In this document: piece after piece, positions 341 to 59,403 of the stretch | Layout of the letters: every line of letters starts with the position of its first letter | Position numbering within the stretch: position 1 is the stretch's first letter | Assembly: GCF_003334785.1 (NCBI RefSeq) | Contig: NZ_QOWV01000008.1 | DNA: 64,000 nt | From: Escherichia coli | Lineage (GTDB): Bacteria; Pseudomonadota; Gammaproteobacteria; Enterobacterales; Enterobacteriaceae | Direction: 5' to 3' (one strand) | Translations under genes and position numbers: made by a program | The notes under the pieces: generated by a model | What the model was told of the DNA's origin: nothing | The model's database searches: none | The model's input: the letters and a program-made list of their open reading frames with translations, nothing else

Positions 341-411
341 GTTTTTGCAACCGTAATCACACTTCCTGGTGGCATACTAAGGAGGAATAAAAAGAAAAAG
401 GAAGATAAGTA

Positions 412-1104
412 ATGCCTTTAAGCGCACAACAGTTAGCTGCACAGAAAAACCTTTCGTATGTTCTGGCTGAGAAGCTGGCGCAACGGATCTTAAAAGGTGA
501 ATATGAACCCGGCACCATTTTGCCCGGTGAGATTGAGCTGGGCGAGCAATTTGGAGTGAGTCGTACAGCGGTACGCGAAGCGGTCAAAACGTTAACGGCA
601 AAAGGGATGGTTTTACCGCGACCGCGAATTGGTACTCGGGTCATGCCACAATCGAACTGGAATTTTCTTGATCAGGAATTGCTTACCTGGTGGATGACAG
701 AAGAGAACTTTCATCAGGTCATCGATCACTTTCTGGTTATGCGTATCTGTCTGGAGCCGCAAGCCTGCCTACTGGCAGCAACGGTTGGCACCGCGGAACA
801 GAAAGCGCATCTCAATACGTTAATGGCCGAAATGGCGGCATTAAAAGAGAACTTTCGCCGTGAACGCTGGATCGAAGTCGATATGGCCTGGCATGAGCAT
901 ATCTATGAAATGAGCGCCAATCCGTTTTTGACCTCATTCGCCTCGCTATTCCATTCGGTTTATCACACTTACTTCACGTCAATTACCAGCGACACAGTGA
1001 TAAAGCTGGATCTGCATCAGGCGATTGTCGATGCGATTATCCAAAGCGATGGCGACGCGGCATTTAAAGCTTGTCAGGCGCTGCTACGCTCACCTGATAA
1101 GTGA
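412..1104 (+). CDS. yieP: GntR/FadR-family transcriptional regulator YieP
   Basis: 230-aa ORF; N-terminal winged-HTH (GEQFGVSRTAVREAVKTL) and FCD-type C-terminal domain; synteny next to hsrA. Confidence 0.9.
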   Translation: MPLSAQQLAAQKNLSYVLAEKLAQRILKGEYEPGTILPGEIELGEQFGVSRTAVREAVKTLTAKGMVLPRPRIGTRVMPQSNWNFLDQELLTWWMTEENFHQVIDHFLVMRICLEPQACLLAATVGTAEQKAHLNTLMAEMAALKENFRRERWIEVDMAWHEHIYEMSANPFLTSFASLFHSVYHTYFTSITSDTVIKLDLHQAIVDAIIQSDGDAAFKACQALLRSPDK

Positions 1105-1126
1105 TAACCCGATAACAGGACATTGA

Positions 1127-2554
1127 ATGAGCGATAAAAAGAAGCGCAGTATGGCGGGTTTGCCGTGGATCGCGGCGATGGCCTTCTTCATGCAGGCACT
1201 TGATGCCACTATTCTTAATACCGCCTTACCCGCAATCGCTCATAGCCTTAATCGTTCTCCTCTCGCGATGCAATCAGCCATCATCAGTTATACGCTGACG
1301 GTGGCGATGCTTATTCCGGTAAGCGGATGGCTAGCCGATCGCTTCGGTACGCGTCGCATTTTTACCCTTGCCGTGAGTCTGTTCACATTGGGTTCTCTGG
1401 CCTGCGCACTTTCTAATTCGCTACCACAGCTGGTTGTCTTCCGGGTTATTCAGGGGATAGGCGGCGCAATGATGATGCCTGTTGCTCGGCTGGCCTTACT
1501 GCGCGCTTATCCTCGTAATGAACTTCTTCCAGTATTGAATTTTGTCGCCATGCCGGGTCTGGTGGGGCCAATTTTAGGCCCCGTTCTTGGCGGCGTGCTG
1601 GTCACCTGGGCAACCTGGCACTGGATATTTTTAATCAATATCCCCATAGGTATTGCGGGCCTTCTTTACGCGCGCAAACATATGCCCAATTTCACCACCG
1701 CACGACGCAGATTCGATATCACTGGCTTTTTGCTGTTTGGCCTCAGCCTTGTTCTCTTCTCAAGCGGAATAGAGCTATTCGGGGAAAAGATTGTCGCCAG
1801 CTGGATTGCCTTGACGGTAATTGTCACCAGCATCGGGTTACTGCTTCTCTATATTCTCCATGCACGACGCACGCCAAACCCATTAATTTCATTAGATTTA
1901 TTTAAAACCCGCACTTTCTCGATCGGTATCGTAGGCAATATTGCAACCCGTCTGGGGACCGGCTGTGTACCGTTCCTTATGCCATTGATGTTACAGGTAG
2001 GATTTGGTTATCAGGCGTTTATTGCTGGCTGTATGATGGCACCGACAGCGTTAGGTTCCATTATTGCAAAATCGATGGTTACCCAAGTCTTACGTCGTCT
2101 GGGCTATCGCCATACGTTAGTGGGGATCACGGTGATTATTGGGCTAATGATCGCTCAGTTCTCTTTGCAATCACCAGCAATGGCTATATGGATGCTGATC
2201 TTGCCGTTGTTTATATTAGGGATGGCTATGTCGACGCAGTTTACCGCGATGAATACCATCACACTTGCCGATCTGACCGATGACAATGCCAGCAGCGGTA
2301 ACAGTGTTCTGGCGGTCACGCAGCAACTGTCGATTAGTTTAGGCGTTGCTGTAAGTGCGGCCGTCCTTCGCGTTTATGAAGGAATGGAAGGCACAACGAC
2401 TGTCGAACAATTCCACTATACGTTTATCACAATGGGCATTATTACTGTTGCTTCAGCAGCAATGTTCATGCTTCTGAAAACAACCGATGGTAATAATTTG
2501 ATCAAAAGACAGCGTAAATCTAAGCCGAACCGCGTTCCATCAGAATCGGAGTAA
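1127..2554 (+). CDS. hsrA: MFS transporter HsrA (YieO), 14-TMS drug:H+ antiporter family
   Basis: 475-aa hydrophobic ORF with MFS motifs ([11 protein letters not shown]); synteny between yieP and rbsR. Confidence 0.9.
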
Positions 2555-3505: not shown

Positions 3506-4435
3506 TCACCTCTGCCTGTCTAAAAATGCGTCGATCTCTTCACGCCACGGTACGGAAGGTTGTGCGCCTTTACGTGTTACGGCAATCGCAGCGGCAGCAT
3601 GGGCAAAACGAATCGCCTCTGGCAATGGTTTTTCTTCCAGCAATGCCGTGATTAACGCACCGTTAAAGGTATCTCCGGCAGCAATGGTATCGACAGCCTG
3701 CACCCGGAATCCAGGAACGCGCTGACCTTCACCATTCACGCTAGCCCATACACCACGACTTCCTAAAGTAATCAGTACAGTACGGATACCTTTTTCATGC
3801 AGTACCTGCGCCGCCTTCGCTGCATCTTCATCATTTTCAACACGAATACCGGTGAGCTTTTCTGCTTCCGTTTCGTTTGGCGTAATAATGTCCACCAGCG
3901 CCAGCAGTTCGTCAGGAAGTTCGCGAGCCGGAGCCGGGTTAAGCGCAACGATAGTCTTATTTTGATGGGCGATTTTCGCCGCTGCCATCACACTTTCGAG
4001 TGGTGATTCCAGCTGCATTAATAATGCTGACGCGTTGGCAATACGCTCACGTTGCGCTTCCACCAGCGCCGGGGAAAGGGCAGCATTAGCGCCGGCATGA
4101 ATACCGATGACATTCTCACCTTCGCCATTAACAAAAATCAGCGCCACACCTGTTGATTCGCCTTTGATCACGCTGACCGGAGTAATATCAATGTTATCAG
4201 TGGCGAGCTGCTGGCGAACGCTCTCACCAATGCTGTCATCACCCGTACAGGCAATAAACGCGATATTCGCACCGCTACGCCCAGCAGCCACAGCCTGATT
4301 CGCGCCTTTGCCGCCAAATGCAACCTGATAGTGGTTACCGGTTACGGTTTCGCCTGGAGTAGGAAAAGATTGAAGATTAAGAATGTGGTCAGCATTAATG
4401 CTGCCAAGAACAACGAGGCTGCCTGCGTTTTGCAT
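3506..4435 (-). CDS. rbsK: ribokinase
   Basis: ORF 3506..4462; start taken at MQNAGSLVVLGSINADH (309 aa). PfkB-family motifs (GGKGANQA; DTIAAGDTF); rbs operon synteny. Confidence 0.92.
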   Translation of the reverse strand: MQNAGSLVVLGSINADHILNLQSFPTPGETVTGNHYQVAFGGKGANQAVAAGRSGANIAFIACTGDDSIGESVRQQLATDNIDITPVSVIKGESTGVALIFVNGEGENVIGIHAGANAALSPALVEAQRERIANASALLMQLESPLESVMAAAKIAHQNKTIVALNPAPARELPDELLALVDIITPNETEAEKLTGIRVENDEDAAKAAQVLHEKGIRTVLITLGSRGVWASVNGEGQRVPGFRVQAVDTIAAGDTFNGALITALLEEKPLPEAIRFAHAAAAIAVTRKGAQPSVPWREEIDAFLDRQR

Positions 4436-4560
4436 ATTCGGGATGTCCATAAAATGCGCCACCGTGTTAGGGTGGCGCGTGCCCTGCTTTTCTTTATATT
4501 ACACGTTCATCTGTCGATGACGTATTTATGTCACCATCAGGTCATACAACCTGATTAAAA

Positions 4561-5451
4561 CTACTGCTTAACAACCAGTTTCAGATCAACCGGATACTTA
4601 GCCTGAACTTTCTCGCCTTTCAGCACTTTATCTGCGGTTTCGACGCCTTTCGCGCCAATCTGATCGGGTAGCTGAGCGATAGTCGCTGCTAGTTTGCCAT
4701 CATTCACCGCTTTTTCGCCATCCGGTGTACCGTCAAATCCGACGACCATCACATCCGATTTACCGGCAGTTTGCAGTGCGCGCAGCGCGCCCAGCGCCAT
4801 TTCATCATTCTGCGCGAATACAGCCTGAACATCCGGATGAGCGGTCAACAGGTTCTGCATTACGTTCAAACCTTTAGTGCGATCAAAATCTGCTGGCTGG
4901 CTGGCAAGAACATTAAACTTGTGAGCAGCAACGGCCTGCTGGAAGCCTTCGCCACGTTCACGGGCTGCGGATGTACCAGCAATGCCTTGCAGCTCGATAA
5001 CTTTGGCACCTTCACCCGCTTTCTTCGCGATGTAATCACCAGCGATTTTGCCGCCCAGTACGTTATCAGAAGCAATGTGGCTCACCACTTCACCTTTCGT
5101 TGCCTGGCGGTCAAGAGTGATAACCGGGATGTTCGCCTGGTTAGCCATCTTCACAGCATTACCCACTGCGTCGGAGTCGGTCGGGTTAATCAGCAGAATT
5201 TTTGTGCCGCGAACGGTTAAGTCCTGCACGTTCGCCAGCTCTTTCGCCGGGTTGTTCTGGGAGTCCAGCACCACCAGGTTATAGCCAAGTTTATCCGCCT
5301 CTTTCTGCGCGCCATCTTTCAGCGATACAAAGAACGGGTTGTTAAGCGTGGAGACCACCAGCGCGATGGTGTCTTTTGCCATCGCATTCGCACTGACGGT
5401 GGCGCTTAGCGCAACAGCGGAAACCAGGGTAGCCAGTTTTTTCATGTTCAT
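4561..5451 (-). CDS. rbsB: periplasmic ribose-binding protein of ribose ABC transporter
   Basis: ORF 4561..5457; start taken at [10 protein letters not shown] (296 aa); signal peptide ...SANAMA|KD; matches RbsB. Confidence 0.93.
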
Positions 5452-8544: not shown

Positions 8545-10413
8545 TTAGATTTCGACCTGAGTACCCAGTTCGATAACCCTGTTTGGCGGGATTTCAAATT
8601 GATCTGGTGCACGCAGCGCATTACGTTGCAGCAGCAAGTACAGCTTGCCGCGCAGACGCAAATACCACGGGCGTTTGCCGAGGATCAACGACTCATGCGA
8701 CATAAAGAAGGAGGTTTCCATCATCCGGCAACTTAATCCTTCCAGACCGCAGCGGTGGAAAACTTCTTCTACGTTTGGCGTTTCTCGCCAACCATAACTT
8801 GCCACCACGCGCCAGAAAGTGGGCGACAGTTGTTCAATCTGTACCCGACGGACGTTATGGACATATGGAGCGTCTTCGGTGCGCAGAGTTAACAGAATCA
8901 CCCGCTCATGCAATACCTTGTTATGTTTAAGGTTATGCATCAGCGCAAAGGGAATGACGTTGATTGCACGCGACATATACACCGCGGTCCCGGGCACGCG
9001 AACAGGCGGTGATTTCTCCAGCGAAGCAATCATCGCTTCCAGAGAGTTACCATGTTCATGCATCCGCCGCAGCAAGCGGAAACGCTCGCTCTTCCAGGTG
9101 GTCATCACGATAAACATCACAGTACCGAGGCTCAATGGCAACCAGCCGCCGGAGAGCAGTTTATCGAGGTTAGCGGTGAACAATGGAATATCGACACAAA
9201 GGAAAGCAATCAGGATCAGCGCAACAAAATACTTATTCCAGTGCCAGTTCTGACGTGCCACGGTAGTCGAGAGAATAGACGTCAGCACCATGGTTCCGGT
9301 CACCGCAATCCCGTACGCCGCCGCCAGGTTGCTGGAGTGCTCAAAGCTGACAATCACAATCACGACCGCGACATAGAGCATCCAGTTCACAAACGGAATA
9401 TAGATTTGCCCTGACTCCATTTCGGAGGTGTGAATAATGCGCATCGGCGACAAATATCCCAGACGTACCGCCTGACGCGTCAATGAGAAGACGCCAGAGA
9501 TAACCGCCTGCGAGGCAATTACCGTCGCCAGTGCGGCGATGATCAGCAGCGGGATCAGCGCCCAGTCCGGTGCCAACAGGAAGAACGGGTTCTTAATCGC
9601 TTCCGGGTTCTTTAACAACAGCGCTCCCTGACCGAAGTAATTAAGGGTCAAGGAAGGTAATACGACGGTGAACCACGCCAGGCGAATAGGGAACTTACCA
9701 AAGTGCCCCATATCAGCATACAGCGCCTCGACCCCCGTAATCGACAACACCACTGCCCCTAATGCAATAAAAGAAACCGTTTTGTATTCAAGGAAGAAAT
9801 GCACCGCCCACATTGGATTCAGCGCATGCAGCACTTCCGGGTTAGCAATAATGCTACGTAACCCCAGTCCTGCCAGAATCAAAAACCAGGTCAGCATGAT
9901 CGGCGCAAACAGCTTACCGACCATAGCCGTGCCATGTTTTTGAATCATAAATAATAAAGTGAGAACGATAATTGAGAGGGGAACTATCCAGGTATCCAGC
10001 TGCGGGGCGACGATTTCCAGACCTTCAATGGCTGACATCACCGAAATAGCGGGTGTTATGACGACTTCACCATAGAAAAAGCTGCCGCCGATTAGCCCCA
10101 TAATCACCAGCATTGATGTGGTTCGCGCCGACGTATTACGCCCGGCAAGCGACATCAACGTCAGGATCCCCCCCTCACCGGCGTTATCTGCCCGCATCAC
10201 GAAGGTGAGATATTTAATGGAAACCACAAAGATTAGCAGCCAGAAGATCAGCGATAAAAAGCCAAACACGGCATCGCGTTCAACGCCAAAACCAAACTGG
10301 CCGGACAAACATTCACGAAGTGTATATAACGGGCTGGTACCAATATCGCCGTAGACAACTCCAATCGCCGCGAGGGTAATCGCGGGCAATGATTGCTTAT
10401 TATCAGTGCTCAT
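8545..10413 (-). CDS. kup: low-affinity K+ uptake transporter Kup (TrkD), KUP/HAK family
   Basis: 622-aa ORF, about 12 TMS plus hydrophilic C-terminus; matches Kup. Confidence 0.94.
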
Positions 10414-10635
10414 AGACTAGTCTTTCGTTGAAATATGAAATGTGTGCTTAGTCCCTTGGCCCACAAAAAAGCGCACAGTATGCACGATTAACGGCAAAAT
10501 CGTACTCCTAAATGCGGCCACATTAACCTGGCTCAAAGAAAAATACCCCCCCTTTGAGACTATTTTAGCCACCAGCAAGAAACGTCTATACTCGCAATTT
10601 ACGCAGAACTTTTGACGAAAGGACGCCACTTCATT

Positions 10636-12132
10636 ATGGCTCACCCTCATTTATTAGCGGAAAGAATTTCCCGCCTGAGCAGTTCGTTGGAAAAGGGGCT
10701 TTATGAACGTAGCCACGCCATCCGCTTGTGTTTATTAGCGGCATTAAGTGGTGAAAGTGTGTTCCTCCTTGGCCCGCCAGGTATTGCCAAAAGTTTGATC
10801 GCCCGGCGCTTAAAATTCGCCTTTCAGAATGCCCGCGCGTTTGAATATCTGATGACCCGCTTCTCCACGCCGGAAGAAGTTTTTGGTCCCCTTTCTATTC
10901 AGGCGCTAAAAGATGAAGGGCGCTATGAACGTTTAACCAGCGGTTACCTGCCGGAAGCAGAAATTGTCTTTCTGGATGAGATCTGGAAAGCGGGCCCGGC
11001 AATTCTTAATACCTTGCTCACCGCCATTAACGAGCGCCAGTTCCGCAACGGTGCACACGTAGAAAAAATCCCGATGCGTCTGCTGGTGGCGGCCTCCAAC
11101 GAGCTGCCGGAAGCAGACAGCAGTCTGGAAGCGTTATATGACCGCATGCTGATTCGTCTGTGGTTAGATAAAGTGCAGGATAAAGCGAATTTCCGCTCCA
11201 TGCTGACCAGTCAACAGGATGAAAACGACAATCCGGTTCCTGATGCCTTGCAGGTCACAGATGAAGAATATGAACGCTGGCAGAAAGAGATTGGTGAAAT
11301 TACGCTGCCCGATCATGTATTTGAGCTGATTTTTATGCTGCGCCAGCAACTGGATAAATTACCGGATGCGCCTTATGTCTCGGATCGTCGCTGGAAAAAA
11401 GCGATCCGATTATTGCAGGCCAGCGCCTTTTTTAGCGGTCGCAGTGCTGTTGCCCCGGTAGATCTCATTTTGCTGAAAGATTGCCTGTGGTATGACGCGC
11501 AAAGCCTGAATTTGATACAACAACAAATTGATGTATTGATGACCGGTCACGCCTGGCAACAGCAAGGGATGTTGACTCGCCTTGGCGCGATTGTGCAACG
11601 TCACCTGCAACTCCAGCAGCAACAAAGCGATAAAACAGCCTTAACGGTAATTCGTCTGGGCGGCATTTTCAGCCGTCGTCAGCAGTATCAACTTCCTGTT
11701 AACGTTACTGCTTCCACTCTGACTCTACTGCTGCAAAAACCGTTAAAACTGCATGATATGGAAGTGGTTCATATCTCCTTTGAGCGTAGCGCGCTGGAAC
11801 AGTGGCTGAGCAAAGGTGGTGAAATTCGCGGTAAACTGAACGGTATCGGCTTTGCCCAGAAACTGAATCTGGAAGTTGATAGCGCCCAACATCTTGTCGT
11901 TCGCGATGTAAGTTTACAAGGCAGTACGCTGGCACTTCCCGGTTCATCGGCTGAAGGTCTGCCTGGTGAAATAAAACAACAACTGGAAGAGCTTGAAAGC
12001 GACTGGCGCAAGCAACACGCTTTATTCAGCGAACAGCAAAAATGTCTGTTTATCCCTGGCGACTGGTTAGGTCGCATTGAAGCCAGCCTACAGGATGTCG
12101 GTGCACAGATTCGCCAGGCACAACAATGCTAA
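10636..12132 (+). CDS. ravA: MoxR-family AAA+ ATPase RavA
   Basis: ORF 10612..12132; start taken at [12 protein letters not shown] (498 aa); Walker A GPPGIAKS, Walker B VFLDEIWK. Confidence 0.92.
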
Positions 12133-13577
12133 CGCTGGATACGCTTAATGTGATGCTGGCCGTCAGCGAAGAGGGATTGATCGAAGAGATGATCATCGCA
12201 CTGCTGGCCTCACCGCAGCTGGCGGTCTTCTTTGAAAAATTCCCACGCCTGAAGGCGGCAATCACTGATGATGTTCCCCGCTGGCGTGAAGCGCTGCGCA
12301 GTCGGCTGAAAGATGCCCGAGTCCCGCCGGAACTCACCGAAGAGGTGATGTGCTATCAGCAAAGCCAGCTCCTCTCCACGCCACAGTTTATTGTGCAGCT
12401 ACCACAGATCCTGGACTTACTGCATCGTCTGAATTCTCCATGGGCAGAACAAGCCCGACAGTTGGTTGATGCTAACAGCACGATCACTTCAGCGTTACAC
12501 ACGCTTTTTCTCCAGCGTTGGCGTTTAAGTCTGATCGTGCAAGCAACGACGTTAAATCAACAGCTATTAGAAGAAGAACGCGAACAACTGTTGAGTGAAG
12601 TTCAGGAACGCATGACGCTGAGCGGACAACTTGAACCGATTCTCGCAGATAACAATACTGCAGCTGGTCGTCTGTGGGATATGAGCGCCGGTCAGCTTAA
12701 ACGTGGCGACTATCAGTTGATTGTGAAATACGGTGAATTTCTTAACGAACATCCGGAACTGAAACGCCTGGCAGAGCAGCTGGGGCGTTCTCGGGAAGCC
12801 AAATCAATACCGCGCAACGATGCGCAGATGGAAACCTTCCGCACCATGGTGCGCGAACCGGCGACGGTTCCTGAGCAGGTTGATGGTCTGCAACAAAGCG
12901 ATGATATTTTACGTCTCCTGCCGCCAGAACTGGCGACACTAGGGATAACGGAACTGGAGTATGAGTTTTACCGTCGGCTGGTGGAAAAACAGTTGCTCAC
13001 CTATCGCCTGCACGGTGAGTCGTGGCGTGAAAAAGTGATCGAACGTCCGGTGGTACATAAAGATTACGATGAACAGCCGCGCGGGCCGTTTATTGTCTGT
13101 GTGGATACTTCCGGCTCAATGGGCGGCTTTAATGAACAGTGTGCGAAAGCGTTCTGCCTGGCCTTGATGCGCATTGCTCTCGCAGAAAACCGGCGCTGCT
13201 ATATTATGCTATTTTCCACCGAGATCGTCCGTTATGAGCTTTCAGGCCCACAAGGCATCGAACAAGCAATCCGTTTTTTAAGCCAGCAGTTTCGTGGCGG
13301 CACCGATCTTGCCAGTTGTTTTCGCGCCATTATGGAACGCTTGCAAAGCAGGGAATGGTTTGATGCCGATGCGGTGGTGATTTCTGATTTTATCGCTCAG
13401 CGGTTGCCTGACGACGTGACGAGTAAAGTGAAAGAGCTGCAGCGGGTACATCAGCATCGCTTTCATGCCGTGGCGATGTCGGCACACGGCAAACCCGGCA
13501 TCATGCGCATTTTCGATCATATCTGGCGCTTTGATACCGGGATGCGAAGCCGCCTGCTCAGACGCTGGCGGCGATAA
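12126..13577 (+). CDS. viaA: von Willebrand factor A-domain protein ViaA (RavA partner)
   Basis: 483-aa ORF; MIDAS motif in [11 protein letters not shown]; start overlaps ravA stop by 7 nt. Confidence 0.92.
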
Positions 13578-13581
13578 ATTA

Positions 13582-14574
13582 TTACAGCAGAGAAGGGACG
13601 CTCTCGCGAACAGCAGCTGGCCATACTCCACACTGAACCTGGCCGATATGCGGCAGTTGCAGCAGCAGCATAGTCAAACGAGACTGGCCGATACCGCCGC
13701 CGATGGTCTGCGGCATTTCACCGCGCAGCAGCGCCTGATGCCACTCCAGCTCCAGGCGATCTTCGTCACCGGTCAGCGCCAGTTGATGCTTCAGCGTGTC
13801 GGCATCTACACGGATCCCCATGGAGGAAAGCTCAAACGCATCTTCCAGTACCGGGTTCCACACCAGAATATCGCCGTTCAGACCCGCATGGCCCAGCTCT
13901 GACGGGGTGCTCCAGTCATCATAATCCGGTGCGCGCACGTCGTGGCGATGACCATCGCTCAGCTTGCCGCCAATCCCGACAAGGAATACCGCGCCAAGAT
14001 CTTTCGCTATCGCCCGCTCACGCCCTTTGGCATCAAGATCCGGATAACGAGACAGTAACTCCTGGCTGTGTACGAAGTGGATCTGATCCGGCAGGAACGG
14101 TGCCAGGCCAAACTCTTCGCTAACCGCAGCTTCGGTTGCTTTAATTCCCGCCCAGATCGCCTCTACCGTGCTTTTCAGAGTCGAGAATTGACGCTCACCG
14201 TCGCCCATTACGCGTTCCCAGTCCCACTGGTCAACATAGACCGAGTGCAACGGAGAAAGACGGTCTTCATCGGGGCGAAGGGCTTTCATGTGCGTGTACA
14301 GCCCTTCGCCCGCGCTGAAGTCGTGTTGCCCTAAGGTCTGACGTTTCCACTTCGCCAGTGAATGAACCACTTCGAACTGGGCATCAGGCAGAGCTTTCAC
14401 TTTTACCTGCACCGCTTTTTCACAGCCCGACAAGTTATCCTGCGTGCCATCCCCCACACGGCTAAGAATCGGCGCCTGGACTTCGATCAGCCCCAGACGT
14501 TCTTCCAGTTGACGAGAAAAGTGAGATTTCACGAAGCTAATTTGACGTTGTTTGGCAATGTAAGCGGTTTTCAT
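13582..14574 (-). CDS. asnA: aspartate--ammonia ligase (asparagine synthetase A)
   Basis: 330-aa [22 protein letters not shown]...; class II aaRS-like fold; synteny with divergent asnC. Confidence 0.95.
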
Positions 14575-14725
14575 TTTTTATACTCCTGCGTCCTGTTGCT
14601 TATGATTAAGCAACAAAAACCGACACACATGCAATAATCATTCAATAAAAAGCCTAACTCACTTTTGATTCATTAAAAAAGAAGGCTAAAATAGAATGAA
14701 TCATCAATCCGCATAAGAAAATCCT

Positions 14726-15184
14726 ATGGAAAATTATCTGATCGACAATCTGGACCGTGGCATCCTGGAAGCATTAATGGGCAATGCGCGCACCGCTTAC
14801 GCCGAACTGGCGAAACAATTTGGCGTCAGTCCGGGGACGATTCACGTTCGAGTAGAGAAAATGAAGCAGGCGGGGATCATTACCGGGGCGCGTATTGATG
14901 TCAGCCCGAAGCAGCTCGGTTATGACGTAGGCTGCTTTATCGGCATTATATTAAAGAGCGCCAAAGACTACCCTTCCGCGCTGGCAAAGCTGGAAAGCCT
15001 TGATGAAGTCACTGAAGCCTATTACACAACCGGCCACTACAGCATCTTTATAAAAGTGATGTGCCGTTCGATCGACGCTCTCCAGCATGTACTTATCAAC
15101 AAGATCCAAACAATTGATGAAATTCAGTCCACCGAGACATTGATCGTCCTGCAAAACCCGATCATGCGTACCATCAAGCCCTGA
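14726..15184 (+). CDS. asnC: Lrp/AsnC-family transcriptional regulator AsnC
   Basis: 152-aa ORF with N-terminal HTH and RAM domain; divergent from asnA. Confidence 0.95.
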   Translation: MENYLIDNLDRGILEALMGNARTAYAELAKQFGVSPGTIHVRVEKMKQAGIITGARIDVSPKQLGYDVGCFIGIILKSAKDYPSALAKLESLDEVTEAYYTTGHYSIFIKVMCRSIDALQHVLINKIQTIDEIQSTETLIVLQNPIMRTIKP

Positions 15185-15734: not shown

Positions 15735-16010
15735 TCTACTGTGGATAACTCTGTCAGGAAGCTTGGATCAACCGGTAGTTATCCAAAGAACAACTGTTGT
15801 TCAGTTTTTGAGTTGTGTATAACCCCTCATTCTGATCCCAGCTTATACGGTCCAGGATCACCGATCATTCACAGTTAATGATCCTTTCCAGGTTGTTGAT
15901 CTTAAAAGCCGGATCCTTGTTATCCACAGGGCAGTGCGATCCTAATAAGAGATCACAATAGAACAGATCTCTAAATAAATAGATCTTCTTTTTAATACCC
16001 AGGATCCCAG
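15735..16010. other. oriC: chromosomal replication origin oriC
   Basis: DnaA boxes R4 tgtggataa (15740..15748), R3 ttatccaaa (15779..15787), R2 tgtgtataa (15814..15822), R1 ttatccaca (15920..15928). Three AT-rich 13-mers as reverse complements of GATCTnTTnTTTT (15942..15954, 15957..15969, 15973..15985) and an AT cluster (15986..15998). 14 GATC sites between 15725 and 16006. Sequence matches canonical E. coli oriC in reverse orientation. Confidence 0.97.
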
Positions 16011-26228: not shown

Positions 26229-26528
26229 GCGCGTGTGACCCGTCCTGAATAGCGTTCACATAGATCCTGCTGATATAAAACCCCCCTGTTTTCCTGTTTA
26301 TTCATTGATCGAAATAAGAGCAAAAACATCCACCTGACGCTTAAATTAAGGTACTGCCTTAATTTTCTGCAGACAAAAGGCGTGACGATGGTCGAAAATG
26401 GCGCTTTCGTCAGCGGGGATAATCCGTTATTGAACAATTTATCCTCTGTCCATTTCACGATGAAAAAAATGTAGTTTTTTCAAGGTGAAGCGGTTTAAAT
26501 TCGTTCTCAAATTACAGTCAGGACGCGT

Positions 26529-57999: not shown

Positions 58000-59403
58000 G
58001 TGTCACTTTCGCTTTGGCAGCAGTGTCTTGCCCGATTGCAGGATGAGTTACCAGCCACAGAATTCAGTATGTGGATACGCCCATTGCAGGCGGAACTGAG
58101 CGATAACACGCTGGCCCTGTACGCGCCAAACCGTTTTGTCCTCGATTGGGTACGGGACAAGTACCTTAATAATATCAATGGACTGCTAACCAGTTTCTGC
58201 GGAGCGGATGCCCCACAGCTGCGTTTTGAAGTCGGCACCAAACCGGTGACGCAAACGCCACAAGCGGCAGTGACGAGCAACGTCGCGGCCCCTGCACAGG
58301 TGGCGCAAACGCAGCCGCAACGTGCTGCGCCTTCTACGCGCTCAGGTTGGGATAACGTCCCGGCCCCGGCAGAACCGACCTATCGTTCTAACGTAAACGT
58401 CAAACACACGTTTGATAACTTCGTTGAAGGTAAATCTAACCAACTGGCGCGCGCGGCGGCTCGCCAGGTGGCGGATAACCCTGGCGGTGCCTATAACCCG
58501 TTGTTCCTTTATGGCGGCACGGGTCTGGGTAAAACTCACCTGCTGCATGCGGTGGGTAACGGCATTATGGCGCGCAAGCCGAATGCCAAAGTGGTTTATA
58601 TGCACTCCGAGCGCTTTGTTCAGGACATGGTTAAAGCCCTGCAAAACAACGCGATCGAAGAGTTTAAACGCTACTACCGTTCCGTAGATGCACTGCTGAT
58701 CGACGATATTCAGTTTTTTGCTAATAAAGAACGATCTCAGGAAGAGTTTTTCCACACCTTCAACGCCCTGCTGGAAGGTAATCAACAGATCATTCTCACC
58801 TCGGATCGCTATCCGAAAGAGATCAACGGCGTTGAGGATCGTTTGAAATCCCGCTTCGGTTGGGGACTGACTGTGGCGATCGAACCGCCAGAGCTGGAAA
58901 CCCGTGTGGCGATCCTGATGAAAAAGGCCGACGAAAACGACATTCGTTTGCCGGGCGAAGTGGCGTTCTTTATCGCCAAGCGTCTACGATCTAACGTACG
59001 TGAGCTGGAAGGGGCGCTGAACCGCGTCATTGCCAATGCCAACTTTACCGGACGGGCGATCACCATCGACTTCGTGCGTGAGGCGCTGCGCGACTTGCTG
59101 GCATTGCAGGAAAAACTGGTCACCATCGACAATATTCAGAAGACGGTGGCGGAGTACTACAAGATCAAAGTCGCGGATCTCCTTTCCAAGCGTCGATCCC
59201 GCTCGGTGGCGCGTCCGCGCCAGATGGCGATGGCGCTGGCGAAAGAGCTGACTAACCACAGTCTGCCGGAGATTGGCGATGCGTTTGGTGGCCGTGACCA
59301 CACGACGGTGCTTCATGCCTGCCGTAAGATCGAGCAGTTGCGTGAAGAGAGCCACGATATCAAAGAAGATTTTTCAAATTTAATCAGAACATTGTCATCG
59401 TAA
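58000..59403 (+). CDS. dnaA: chromosomal replication initiator DnaA
   Basis: GTG start at 58000 ([18 protein letters not shown]; 467 aa); Walker [11 protein letters not shown]; C-terminal DNA-binding domain. Confidence 0.97.

Follow-up and report, generated by a model that had tools for sequence, protein, structure and literature searches.

A hairpin near the 3' end of viaA (13494 to 13541, minus strand) is best read as a terminator of intrinsic type for the convergent gene asnA, embedded in the viaA coding sequence and predicted to be Rho independent. It lies in the window, the 64,000-nucleotide stretch of Escherichia coli DNA that we analyzed, where the chromosomal ravA-viaA operon stands tail to tail with asnA and has asnA, asnC, mioC, and oriC as neighbors. 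ravA (10636 to 12132, plus strand; ATG at 10636, TAA at 12130 to 12132) encodes a MoxR-type AAA+ ATPase of 498 amino acids, and viaA (12126 to 13577, plus strand; ATG at 12126, TAA at 13575 to 13577) encodes its VWA-domain partner of 483 amino acids. The 4-nt sequence ATTA (13578 to 13581) separates the viaA stop from that of asnA (13582 to 14574, minus strand), which encodes a 330-amino-acid aspartate-ammonia ligase (TIGR00669, 665 bits versus a cutoff of 293). We place high confidence in the account as a whole, which combines a known operon, coupled translation of its two genes, an embedded asnA terminator, Rho-dependent stops, and an mRNA overlap of about 230 nt. Our addition is the hairpin, its conservation, and its decay after the loss of asnA; the asnA 3' end itself is already published.

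Transcript ends and a conserved hairpin at the viaA-asnA junction

The space between viaA and asnA cannot accommodate a terminator, so each transcript ends within the other gene. The earlier note had claimed that the convergent transcripts must overlap, and published data bear this out. The asnA-viaA pair is among the 165 convergent pairs of the E. coli excludome (ExcludonFinder; PMC12288877), a list whose membership is set by coverage thresholds without a measured effect. A Term-seq 3' end of asnA-sense RNA maps to 13486 on the minus strand (MG1655 3928243 +; PMC7815308), which with coordinates mapped to the window falls 92 nt within viaA, at a distance of 96 nt from the final base of the asnA stop codon; it comes from the LB OD600 2.0 tab of Supplementary file 1 and was curated in one of three conditions only. 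Rho termination regions from Supplementary file 2 of the same study, both of low resolution (800-nt windows), are found on both strands. The region for viaA-sense RNA antisense to asnA is at 13713 (plus strand; MG1655 3928016 -; Rho score, 3.9; P = 4e-8), 136 nt beyond the viaA stop, and that for asnA-sense read-through antisense to viaA is at 13289 (minus strand; MG1655 3928440 +; Rho score, 4.9; P = 5e-11). The C/G ratio on the asnA-sense strand is 1.39 from 13485 to 13290, and the nearest bicyclomycin (BCM)-sensitive region lies ~200 nt downstream of the asnA 3' end. In the mechanism we propose, asnA RNA would end at the hairpin and a short U-rich tail within viaA codons 454 to 472, while asnA read-through RNA and viaA RNA would be stopped further in by Rho, as the published BCM data suggest. 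With transcript ends inside the opposite genes, the two mRNAs overlap by roughly 230 nt. The 3' end mapping that the earlier note had proposed as a check thus exists in print for asnA-sense RNA (13486), together with the Rho region for viaA-sense RNA (13713). Its idea that a terminator inside the asnA 3' coding sequence would speak against the overlap was misframed, since a viaA terminator within asnA supports it.

The hairpin lies 41 to 88 nt past the asnA stop, in viaA codons 457 to 472, and has the layout CCCGGUAUCA-AA-GCGC[17-nt loop]GCGC-A-UGAUGCCGGG. The native minus-strand fold has an energy of -26.1 kcal/mol versus -17.2 ± 3.6 kcal/mol for synonymously randomized sequences; it is thus ~9 kcal/mol more stable, and more so in the asnA sense. 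Read from 13541 to 13494, the GC-rich hairpin has an energy of -21.5 kcal/mol in most species. Synonymous diversity in viaA has a single deep minimum, at codons 456 to 472 (0.42 versus a mean of 1.18; permutation P ≤ 2e-4), and this minimum coincides with the hairpin, while scans of ravA and asnA for synonymous variation found no comparable dip. An embedded asnA terminator would explain these otherwise puzzling frozen silent sites. The stem pairs well in the asnA sense (95.3% of cells paired, 65 distinct sequences). No compensatory double substitutions in the stem were found among the aligned sequences, so the support for the hairpin is conservation, not covariation. Its energy is -19.9 ± 2.2 kcal/mol in the 74 species that carry asnA versus about -9 kcal/mol in three species in which asnA is completely lost, a comparison that involves a single clade and is effectively one event.

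The tail past the stem, UUUGCCGU, holds four U in eight bases, and many species have UUUUCC. The mapped RNA 3' end lies in this tail 8 nt after the stem, within the 7 to 9 nt expected of an intrinsic terminator. A consensus terminator scan of 10300 to 14800 that required five T in eight bases returned nothing at the viaA/asnA junction; such scans miss the hairpin because of its 17-nt loop, the internal loops in its stem, and its poor U tract. Folds of 120 nt around the junction had energies no better than those of shuffled sequences. The TERMITe supplements hold no entry for asnA or viaA, and our literature search found no description of an asnA terminator or of its silent-site footprint or decay in viaA. 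The end at 13486 could also be a processed end that the hairpin protects.

Could the block from 13491 to 13541 instead serve viaA, by stabilizing the mRNA 3' end or by making ribosomes pause ahead of the lipid-binding tail, or might it be a site that acts at the DNA level? The palindrome does fold in the viaA sense as well (91.0% of cells paired), its loop contains GATC, and conservation extends to synonymous positions of the loop (TTC, GAT, CAT, and ATC), more than a plain stem-loop terminator would need. However, the stem is stronger in the asnA sense, where it has G-U pairs in place of the C-A mismatches of the other strand; the RNA 3' end maps 8 nt past the stem on the asnA-sense strand; and the stem decayed precisely in the clade that lacks asnA and keeps viaA. 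We consider this alternative improbable and prefer a putative asnA terminator. A role for the loop GATC as a Dam/SeqA site was rejected, since several species have lost it.

Two other candidates in the region were discarded. An antisense open reading frame (13278 to 13631, 117 amino acids) was rejected as an explanation for the synonymous constraint, which spans only ~51 nt and not the whole frame. A GC hairpin, GCCGCC-N12-GGCGGC (13549 to 13572), in the last viaA codons, which encode the Arg-rich tail SRLLRRWRR, was rejected as a functional element: the codons of its 3' arm vary (codon 482 is CGG, CAG, AAA, or AAG), its structure is not conserved, and no 3' end was mapped there.

The ravA-viaA pair and translation of viaA

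The locus is the same as ravA-viaA (b3746-b3745) and asnA (b3744) of E. coli K-12 MG1655, from which the window differs over 4.4 kb at one nucleotide (12752, T instead of G) and hence solely in ViaA Q209H. Many E. coli chromosomes, that of strain ML35 among them, match the 4.4-kb stretch with 100% identity, and the ravA-viaA arrangement was found in 5,425 of 5,426 complete E. coli genomes. RefSeq gives the same gene boundaries in ML35 and MG1655, and MG1655 likewise has a 7-nt overlap and a 4-nt gap. The earlier note had the coordinates of ravA, viaA, and asnA, the overlap, and the gap correct base for base. Its gene names were also right: RavA scores 993 bits against the NCBIfam equivalog NF010054 (cutoff, 681), ViaA, encoded directly 3' of ravA, scores 878 bits against NF008230 (cutoff, 500), and chains in the PDB match both (RavA over its full length in 3nbx and 6q7l, E = 0; ViaA residues 1 to 191 in 7ugc). 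Its description of the pair is correct yet ordinary, since this is a well-studied operon, already named and structurally characterized, whose transcript overlap with asnA is published, and as an observation it adds nothing. An Rfam scan at the gathering threshold found no family within 10.4 to 14.8 kb (the window hits, STnc410 and AsdA, are elsewhere only), and a tRNA scan found no tRNAs.

Although a mechanical list of open reading frames extends ravA upstream to a TTG at 10612, the annotated and crystallized protein begins at the ATG at 10636. Its AAA+ core matches Pfam bpMoxR (2e-56) and AAA_5 (9e-28) as well as AAA_lid_8, and the RavA-specific domains LARA_dom (PF20265, 2e-39, amino acids 335 to 436) and ATPase_RavA_C (PF12592, 2e-23, amino acids 444 to 497) are present. 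The VWA domain of ViaA (amino acids 320 to 457) matches VWA_CoxE (PF05762, 6e-10) and VWA_2 (PF13519, 6e-8). Both motifs named in the earlier note were located by position: Walker A GPPGIAKS in RavA (10771 to 10794, plus strand; amino acids 46 to 53) and the MIDAS-type DxSxS motif DTSGSM in ViaA (13104 to 13121, plus strand; amino acids 327 to 332, D327-x-S329-x-S331), the latter within the VWA Pfam match. The sequence FLDEI (10969 to 10983, plus strand; RavA amino acids 112 to 116) we take to be Walker B from the standard AAA+ hhhhDE pattern. The Walker A residue K52 is the one changed in the published ATPase-dead allele K52Q (PMC3893208). Published work on the K-12 protein, which is essentially identical, describes RavA as a hexameric MoxR AAA+ ATPase that binds LdcI and hydrolyzes ATP. 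ViaA stimulates this ATPase, and the pair is described as low in abundance, chaperone-like, and linked to respiratory complexes, to membrane lipids, and to sensitivity to aminoglycosides. R476 and R479 at the C terminus of ViaA are changed in lipid-binding-deficient mutants (R476E/R479E; PMC9489729).

Operon status and control of ravA-viaA by sigma-S and Fnr have been reported (PMC3893208, PMC9489729), and a 206-bp fragment has served as the native, sigma-S-dependent ravA promoter (PMC3893208). Within this fragment, pattern matching gave CTATACT (10586 to 10592, plus strand) as a candidate sigma-S-type -10-like hexamer, which we offer as a lead only. The sole match in a search for an Fnr box 5' of ravA (10523 to 10536) has three mismatches.

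viaA starts within the last 7 nt of ravA, ATGCTAA (12126 to 12132, plus strand), which include the ravA TAA; its ATG begins 4 nt ahead of the ravA stop codon, and its frame is -1 relative to ravA. Among 80 other Enterobacteriaceae species, 49 have a 7-nt overlap at the junction, 18 have a 4-nt overlap (ATGA), and 13 have a 1-nt overlap (TAATG), with no gap in any; the position of the viaA ATG is fixed and the ravA stop slides among these overlap lengths. This comparison of sequences shows selection on the stop/start overlap across Enterobacteriaceae. The upstream region, which the earlier note had singled out for an internal ribosome-binding site, contains a sole Shine-Dalgarno-like match, AGG at 12116 to 12118 (plus strand), 7 nt 5' of the ATG in the ravA Gln-Ala codons CAG GCA, and CAGGC at the 3' end of ravA is conserved in nearly all 80 species. 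Its anti-Shine-Dalgarno duplex energy of -2.5 kcal/mol, versus -6.9 for asnA and -7.2 for mioC, is weak but not absent. With ~350 RavA and ~90 ViaA molecules per cell, ViaA is about fourfold scarcer (PMC3893208). Translational coupling of ravA and viaA is likely, given that none of the 80 species lacks the overlap and that the viaA Shine-Dalgarno sequence is weak, and the lower abundance of ViaA gives it indirect support. Most ViaA would then come from ribosomes that reinitiate after completing ravA, a step that would hold its level below that of RavA. At its good spacing, the AGG could also allow some independent initiation at viaA.

It is unlikely that viaA is instead translated independently, from its own weak Shine-Dalgarno sequence or from a downstream GTG at 12150 or ATG at 12153, with the overlap reflecting genome compaction. 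The AGG 7 nt before the ATG would suit such initiation, in-frame GTG and ATG codons do occur at codons 9 and 10, and the overproduction of ViaA in a ravA::cat strain shows that transcription level clearly matters (PMC3893208). Against it, the viaA ATG is present in 80 of 80 species, and the ravA stop is confined to positions that give an overlap of 1, 4, or 7 nt and never a gap. The first 15 viaA codons evolve as coding sequence, with 88% amino acid conservation and a synonymous entropy of 1.19 that equals the gene mean; codons 2 to 9 keep their amino acids despite synonymous changes and are therefore translated. The downstream GTG and ATG candidates have equally weak Shine-Dalgarno sequences (-3.1 kcal/mol). 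In many species, an in-frame stop 12 nt 5' of the ATG makes the ATG the first possible start. The earlier note had allowed that a downstream start would remove the overlap; the conserved ATG and translated codons 2 to 9 argue against such a start, which we keep only as part of this unlikely alternative.

A RavA-ViaA fusion could in principle arise if ribosomes underwent a programmed -1 frameshift late in ravA, as viaA is in the -1 frame and in E. coli that frame has no stop over the preceding 45 nt. However, there is no slippery heptamer in 12084 to 12125, the in-frame stop of many species lies only 12 nt before the ATG, and RavA and ViaA have been detected and purified separately (PMC3893208). 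We reject a fusion as wholly implausible and retain coupled translation as the likely arrangement.

Effects on asnA and comparison with known systems

asnA is kept tail to tail with viaA in 74 of the 80 species, with a gap of -4 to 17 nt in those 74. One can ask whether the convergent overlap is a regulatory excludon, in which asnA and ravA-viaA repress each other because RNA polymerases collide or because RNase III cuts the ~230-bp duplex. In its favor, the core convergent excludome includes asnA-viaA (PMC12288877), and the tight tail-to-tail layout is retained in these 74 species. In addition, asnA mRNA fell 11.2-fold, the largest calculable decrease, in a ravA::cat strain in which read-through from cat overexpresses viaA, and plasmid-borne ravA-viaA in trans instead raised asnA 1.96-fold. 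However, native expression of ravA-viaA is very low (~350 and ~90 proteins per cell; PMC3893208), so interference with asnA would normally be small. In ravA::cat, asnB, at a separate locus, was also lowered, by 3.2-fold, a sign that asparagine or nitrogen metabolism is affected in trans; the absence of RavA could by itself account for the opposite signs of the asnA changes; and the excludome listing reflects coverage thresholds, not a measured effect. Mutual repression is on balance a possible but not a probable reading.

We hold as tentative, and on the doubtful side, the idea that, through the embedded terminator and the ~230-nt antisense overlap, asnA expression depends on what happens at ravA-viaA, so that common alleles perturb asnA in cis. 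If this is true, the perturbing alleles would include viaA and ravA-viaA deletions, inserted cassettes with read-through into viaA, proteins shortened at the C terminus (for example, ViaA1-472), and insertions where viaA and asnA meet, and some RavA-ViaA phenotypes and transcriptome changes, such as the 11-fold drop in asnA, would be artifacts of disturbed convergent transcription or termination. The follow-up is of modest value, which lies in the selection on the overlap and in the location of a putative asnA terminator in the viaA reading frame. Such a terminator inside the 3' part of viaA would constrain the silent sites of the gene. It also carries a warning, as viaA deletions, truncations, and junction insertions would remove or disturb the asnA 3' end.

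CbbQ-CbbO and CoxD-CoxE are MoxR AAA+/VWA pairs, and the VWA_CoxE match of ViaA links it to this type. According to PMC9976466, NorQ-NorD and other such pairs consist of an AAA+ gene followed by an adjacent VWA gene with a MIDAS motif and have a chaperone-like or maturation role, features shared by ravA-viaA. RavA differs from these pairs by its LARA domain and by a C-terminal domain specific to RavA, which bind the lysine decarboxylase LdcI; the clients of RavA-ViaA (Nuo, Frd, and membrane lipids) are still debated in the literature.

The short intergenic distance of asnA-viaA is typical of E. coli convergent excludons (PMC12288877). What differs here is that an intergenic space of 4 nt forces the transcripts to overlap. 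Intrinsic terminators inside the coding sequence of a convergent neighbor are a general phenomenon in full-length and 3'-end RNA mapping studies. The putative asnA terminator resembles these in its hairpin, its short U-containing tail, and a 3' end 8 nt past the stem, and it differs from typical terminators in its 17-nt loop, the internal loops in its stem, and its poor U tract.

Setting and identity of the ravA-viaA locus

The raw sequence and the called ORFs both place ravA on the plus strand from the ATG at 10636 to the TAA at 12130-12132 (498 aa) and viaA from the ATG at 12126 to the TAA at 13575-13577 (483 aa). They agree with the coordinates in the earlier note, as well as with its Walker A motif GPPGIAKS (RavA residues 46-53) and DxSxS MIDAS motif DTSGSM (ViaA residues 327-332), and the RefSeq boundaries for kup, ravA, viaA, asnA, asnC, mioC, and mnmG are also those it gave. 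Many E. coli chromosomes match the 4.4-kb segment at 10400..14800 with 100% identity, and it is present in 5425 of 5426 complete genomes of the species. Relative to K-12 MG1655, one base in this segment differs (12752, T for G, giving ViaA Q209H); several other E. coli strains that are 100% identical over 10400..14800 carry the same allele. RavA exceeds the cut-off of its NCBIfam equivalog model (993 bits versus 681), matches PDB 3nbx, 6q7l, and others, and contains the Pfam domains bpMoxR, AAA_5, AAA_lid_8, LARA_dom, and ATPase_RavA_C. ViaA likewise exceeds its cut-off (878 bits versus 500), contains VWA_CoxE and VWA_2, and matches PDB 7ugc with its N-terminal domain, and AsnA meets the TIGR00669 cut-off. 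The locus is the K-12 ravA-viaA operon itself, and its overlap and convergent layout are ordinary for E. coli. The MG1655 annotation has oriC between mioC and mnmG, which maps to 15754..15985, just past mioC. Considering also the Rfam matches to the sRNA STnc410 (26288..26445, minus strand) and to AsdA, the antisense RNA of dnaA mRNA (58510..58590, minus strand), the window is the oriC-to-dnaA region of E. coli.

Upstream of ravA, a putative sigma-S-type -10 element (CTATACT) lies at 10586..10592, 44 nt from the ATG, which is preceded by AAGGA at the long spacing of ~12 nt. An in-frame TTG at 10612, eight codons 5' of the ATG, has no Shine-Dalgarno (SD) match; it was the start in a mechanical ORF call, which we rejected since the ATG is used in every annotation and in the crystallised protein. 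The divergent kup-ravA intergenic region (about 10414..10635) also contains, 5' of the kup start, a terminator-like hairpin followed by TTTTTT (10471..10486, minus strand). In the E. coli strains SCPM-O-B-9504 and SCPM-O-B-12142, the ravA promoter region, between kup and ravA, carries an IS4 element (373..1701 in comparison locus L083).

ravA and viaA are known to form one operon, which depends on sigma-S under aerobic conditions and is under Fnr control (PMC3893208, PMC9489729), with low levels of about 350 RavA and 90 ViaA per cell (PMC3893208). ViaA is a RavA-binding protein that stimulates the RavA ATPase, and the literature links the pair to LdcI, NADH dehydrogenase I, fumarate reductase, specific phospholipids, and aminoglycoside sensitivity, with its true clients still debated. 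The description of a chaperone-like pair with incompletely defined clients matches this literature, which already covers the pair's function; that summary is therefore accurate but not new.

The ravA/viaA junction and the viaA start

The two genes share the seven nucleotides ATGCTAA (12126..12132), as the earlier note had claimed. We located this junction in 80 other Enterobacteriaceae species with ViaA identities of 77-99%. Stop and start overlap in all 80, with no gapped junction among them: 49 have ATGYTRA (7-nt overlap), 18 have ATGA (4 nt), and 13 have TAATG (1 nt). The ATGA tally includes ten Klebsiella/Raoultella-type species in which viaA starts one codon later. The viaA ATG is otherwise fixed, while the ravA stop occupies one of three positions that keep the relative frame; judged from sequence, this sliding is the pattern expected if stop/start proximity is under selection. 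Codons 1-15 of viaA show 88% amino acid conservation with ordinary synonymous variation, and many species have an in-frame stop 12 nt upstream of the ATG, which together identify the annotated ATG as the viaA start and contradict a downstream start that would remove the overlap. A search for a ribosome-binding site near the junction found a weak one and no strong SD: the sole SD-like element is an AGG located 7 nt before the ATG, whose pairing with the anti-SD has an energy of -2.5 kcal/mol, compared with -6.9 for asnA and -7.2 for mioC. Considering this weak SD, the retained overlap, and the roughly 4:1 ratio of RavA to ViaA, viaA is most likely coupled to ravA, such that ViaA would be synthesised by termination at the ravA stop and reinitiation at the viaA ATG. 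The overlap and the operon in themselves add nothing to published knowledge.

Convergent transcription and a conserved hairpin in viaA

On the opposite strand, asnA (13582..14574) is separated from viaA only by ATTA (13578..13581), the 4-bp gap previously proposed. A consensus scan found no intrinsic terminator at this junction, and the GC hairpin closest to the two stop codons (13549..13572) was rejected as a functional element because its stability is not unusual and it is not conserved. Adams et al. 2021 reported a Term-seq 3' end of class 'antisense viaA' at MG1655 3928243 (+) in LB at OD600 2.0, and bicyclomycin-sensitive Rho termination regions at 3928440 (+) and 3928016 (-) (PMC7815308). 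The 3' end maps to 13486 (minus strand), so asnA RNA enters viaA by 92 nt; the Rho regions map to 13289 (minus, asnA-sense) and 13713 (plus, viaA-sense), the latter placing the entry of viaA RNA into asnA on the order of 136 nt before Rho termination. The resulting overlap of about 230 nt, together with the presence of asnA-viaA among the 165 convergent pairs that ExcludonFinder lists as overlapping in half or more of 58 MG1655 RNA-seq data sets (PMC12288877), bears out the expectation that these transcripts must overlap. It is already catalogued and hence not new.

Across the 80 species, silent sites in the last ~20 viaA codons are almost frozen. Per-codon synonymous entropy has a single deep minimum at codons 456-472 (13491..13541), where the 15-codon window falls from a gene-wide mean of 1.18 to 0.42, a value matched in 0 of 5000 permutations. 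Neither ravA (minimum, 0.69) nor asnA (0.65) has a comparable dip, and the same profiling detected no synonymous constraint at the asnA 3' end. The block is an imperfect palindrome that folds on the asnA-sense strand into two stems, of 10 bp and 4 bp, with an internal loop between them; the tail UUUGCCGU comes next, and the published end at 13486 is the final U of this tail, 8 nt past the stem. The native sequence is ~9 kcal/mol more stable than synonymous-randomised versions, with the larger effect on the asnA-sense strand. Stem cells of the alignment are paired in 95.3% of cases on that strand and in 91.0% on the opposite one, since a number of substitutions produce G-U on the former and C-A on the latter. 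No compensatory double changes were found in the stem across the aligned species sequences. Conservation at silent sites extends to the 17-nt loop (TTC, GAT, CAT, ATC), a feature that a simple terminator stem leaves unexplained.

Hairpin energy averages -19.9±2.2 kcal/mol in 74 asnA-bearing species and is weakest of all (-8.8 to -9.1 kcal/mol) in three wholly without asnA, which have several silent substitutions in both arms and the tail; these three, Pseudescherichia vulneris and two relatives, are one clade and thus a single evolutionary event. The U tract in the tail is poor, and the 13486 end could be a processed end that the hairpin protects. The evidence is best read as an asnA terminator that lies within viaA codons 454-472 and constrains them.

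Possible consequences for asnA and comparison with known systems

Deletion or truncation of the viaA 3' end, or insertion at the junction, would remove or displace this terminator. Published truncations include the ViaA1-472 constructs (PMC9489729), and we infer that Keio-type viaA deletions are also affected. In the ravA::cat insertion strain, where cassette read-through over-expresses viaA, microarrays showed an 11.2-fold decrease in asnA, the strongest among genes with a calculable fold change (PMC3893208). Plasmid-borne ravA-viaA in trans instead raised asnA 1.96-fold, and asnC rose with it, both by about 1.9-fold (PMC3893208). These opposite signs fit interference in cis as convergent transcription increases. 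On the other hand, asnB, which lies at a different locus, fell 3.2-fold in ravA::cat as well (PMC3893208), and the opposite signs could also stem from loss of RavA itself. The published data cannot separate cis interference from a trans effect. Within asnA, around codon 100, a strong 12-bp hairpin (GGGCGAAGGGCU...AGCCCUUCGCCC; 14273..14311, minus strand; -28 kcal/mol with flanks) lies 9-12 nt before published Term-seq 3' ends at 14264 and 14261 (minus) that lack a U tract, and may be a premature termination or processing stop.

The asnA-less comparison loci are L013, L026, and L041 (about 4359-4600) and L077, L079, and L080. In the related Escherichia sp. ESNIH1, P. vulneris, and MAG UBA7338, asnA is entirely lost, asnC follows viaA after ~35 nt, and the hairpin copy is degraded. 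In two Kosakonia species and one MAG labelled Proteobacteria bacterium, asnA is not detectable and the hairpin is still present; ~140 nt, possibly an asnA remnant, separate the viaA stop from sequence that elsewhere precedes asnC. Locus L036 (CACSKA010000004.1), labelled 'Chryseobacterium sp. 18061', carries an Enterobacteriaceae-type ravA-viaA-asnA with 83% ViaA identity, and the assembly is probably mislabelled or contaminated.

We found no description of the embedded asnA terminator or its evolutionary footprint in the literature, and they do not seem to have been described previously. NorQ/NorD is, like RavA/ViaA, a MoxR/VWA pair, from which RavA differs by its LARA domain, and the embedded terminator is an instance of an already known kind of arrangement.
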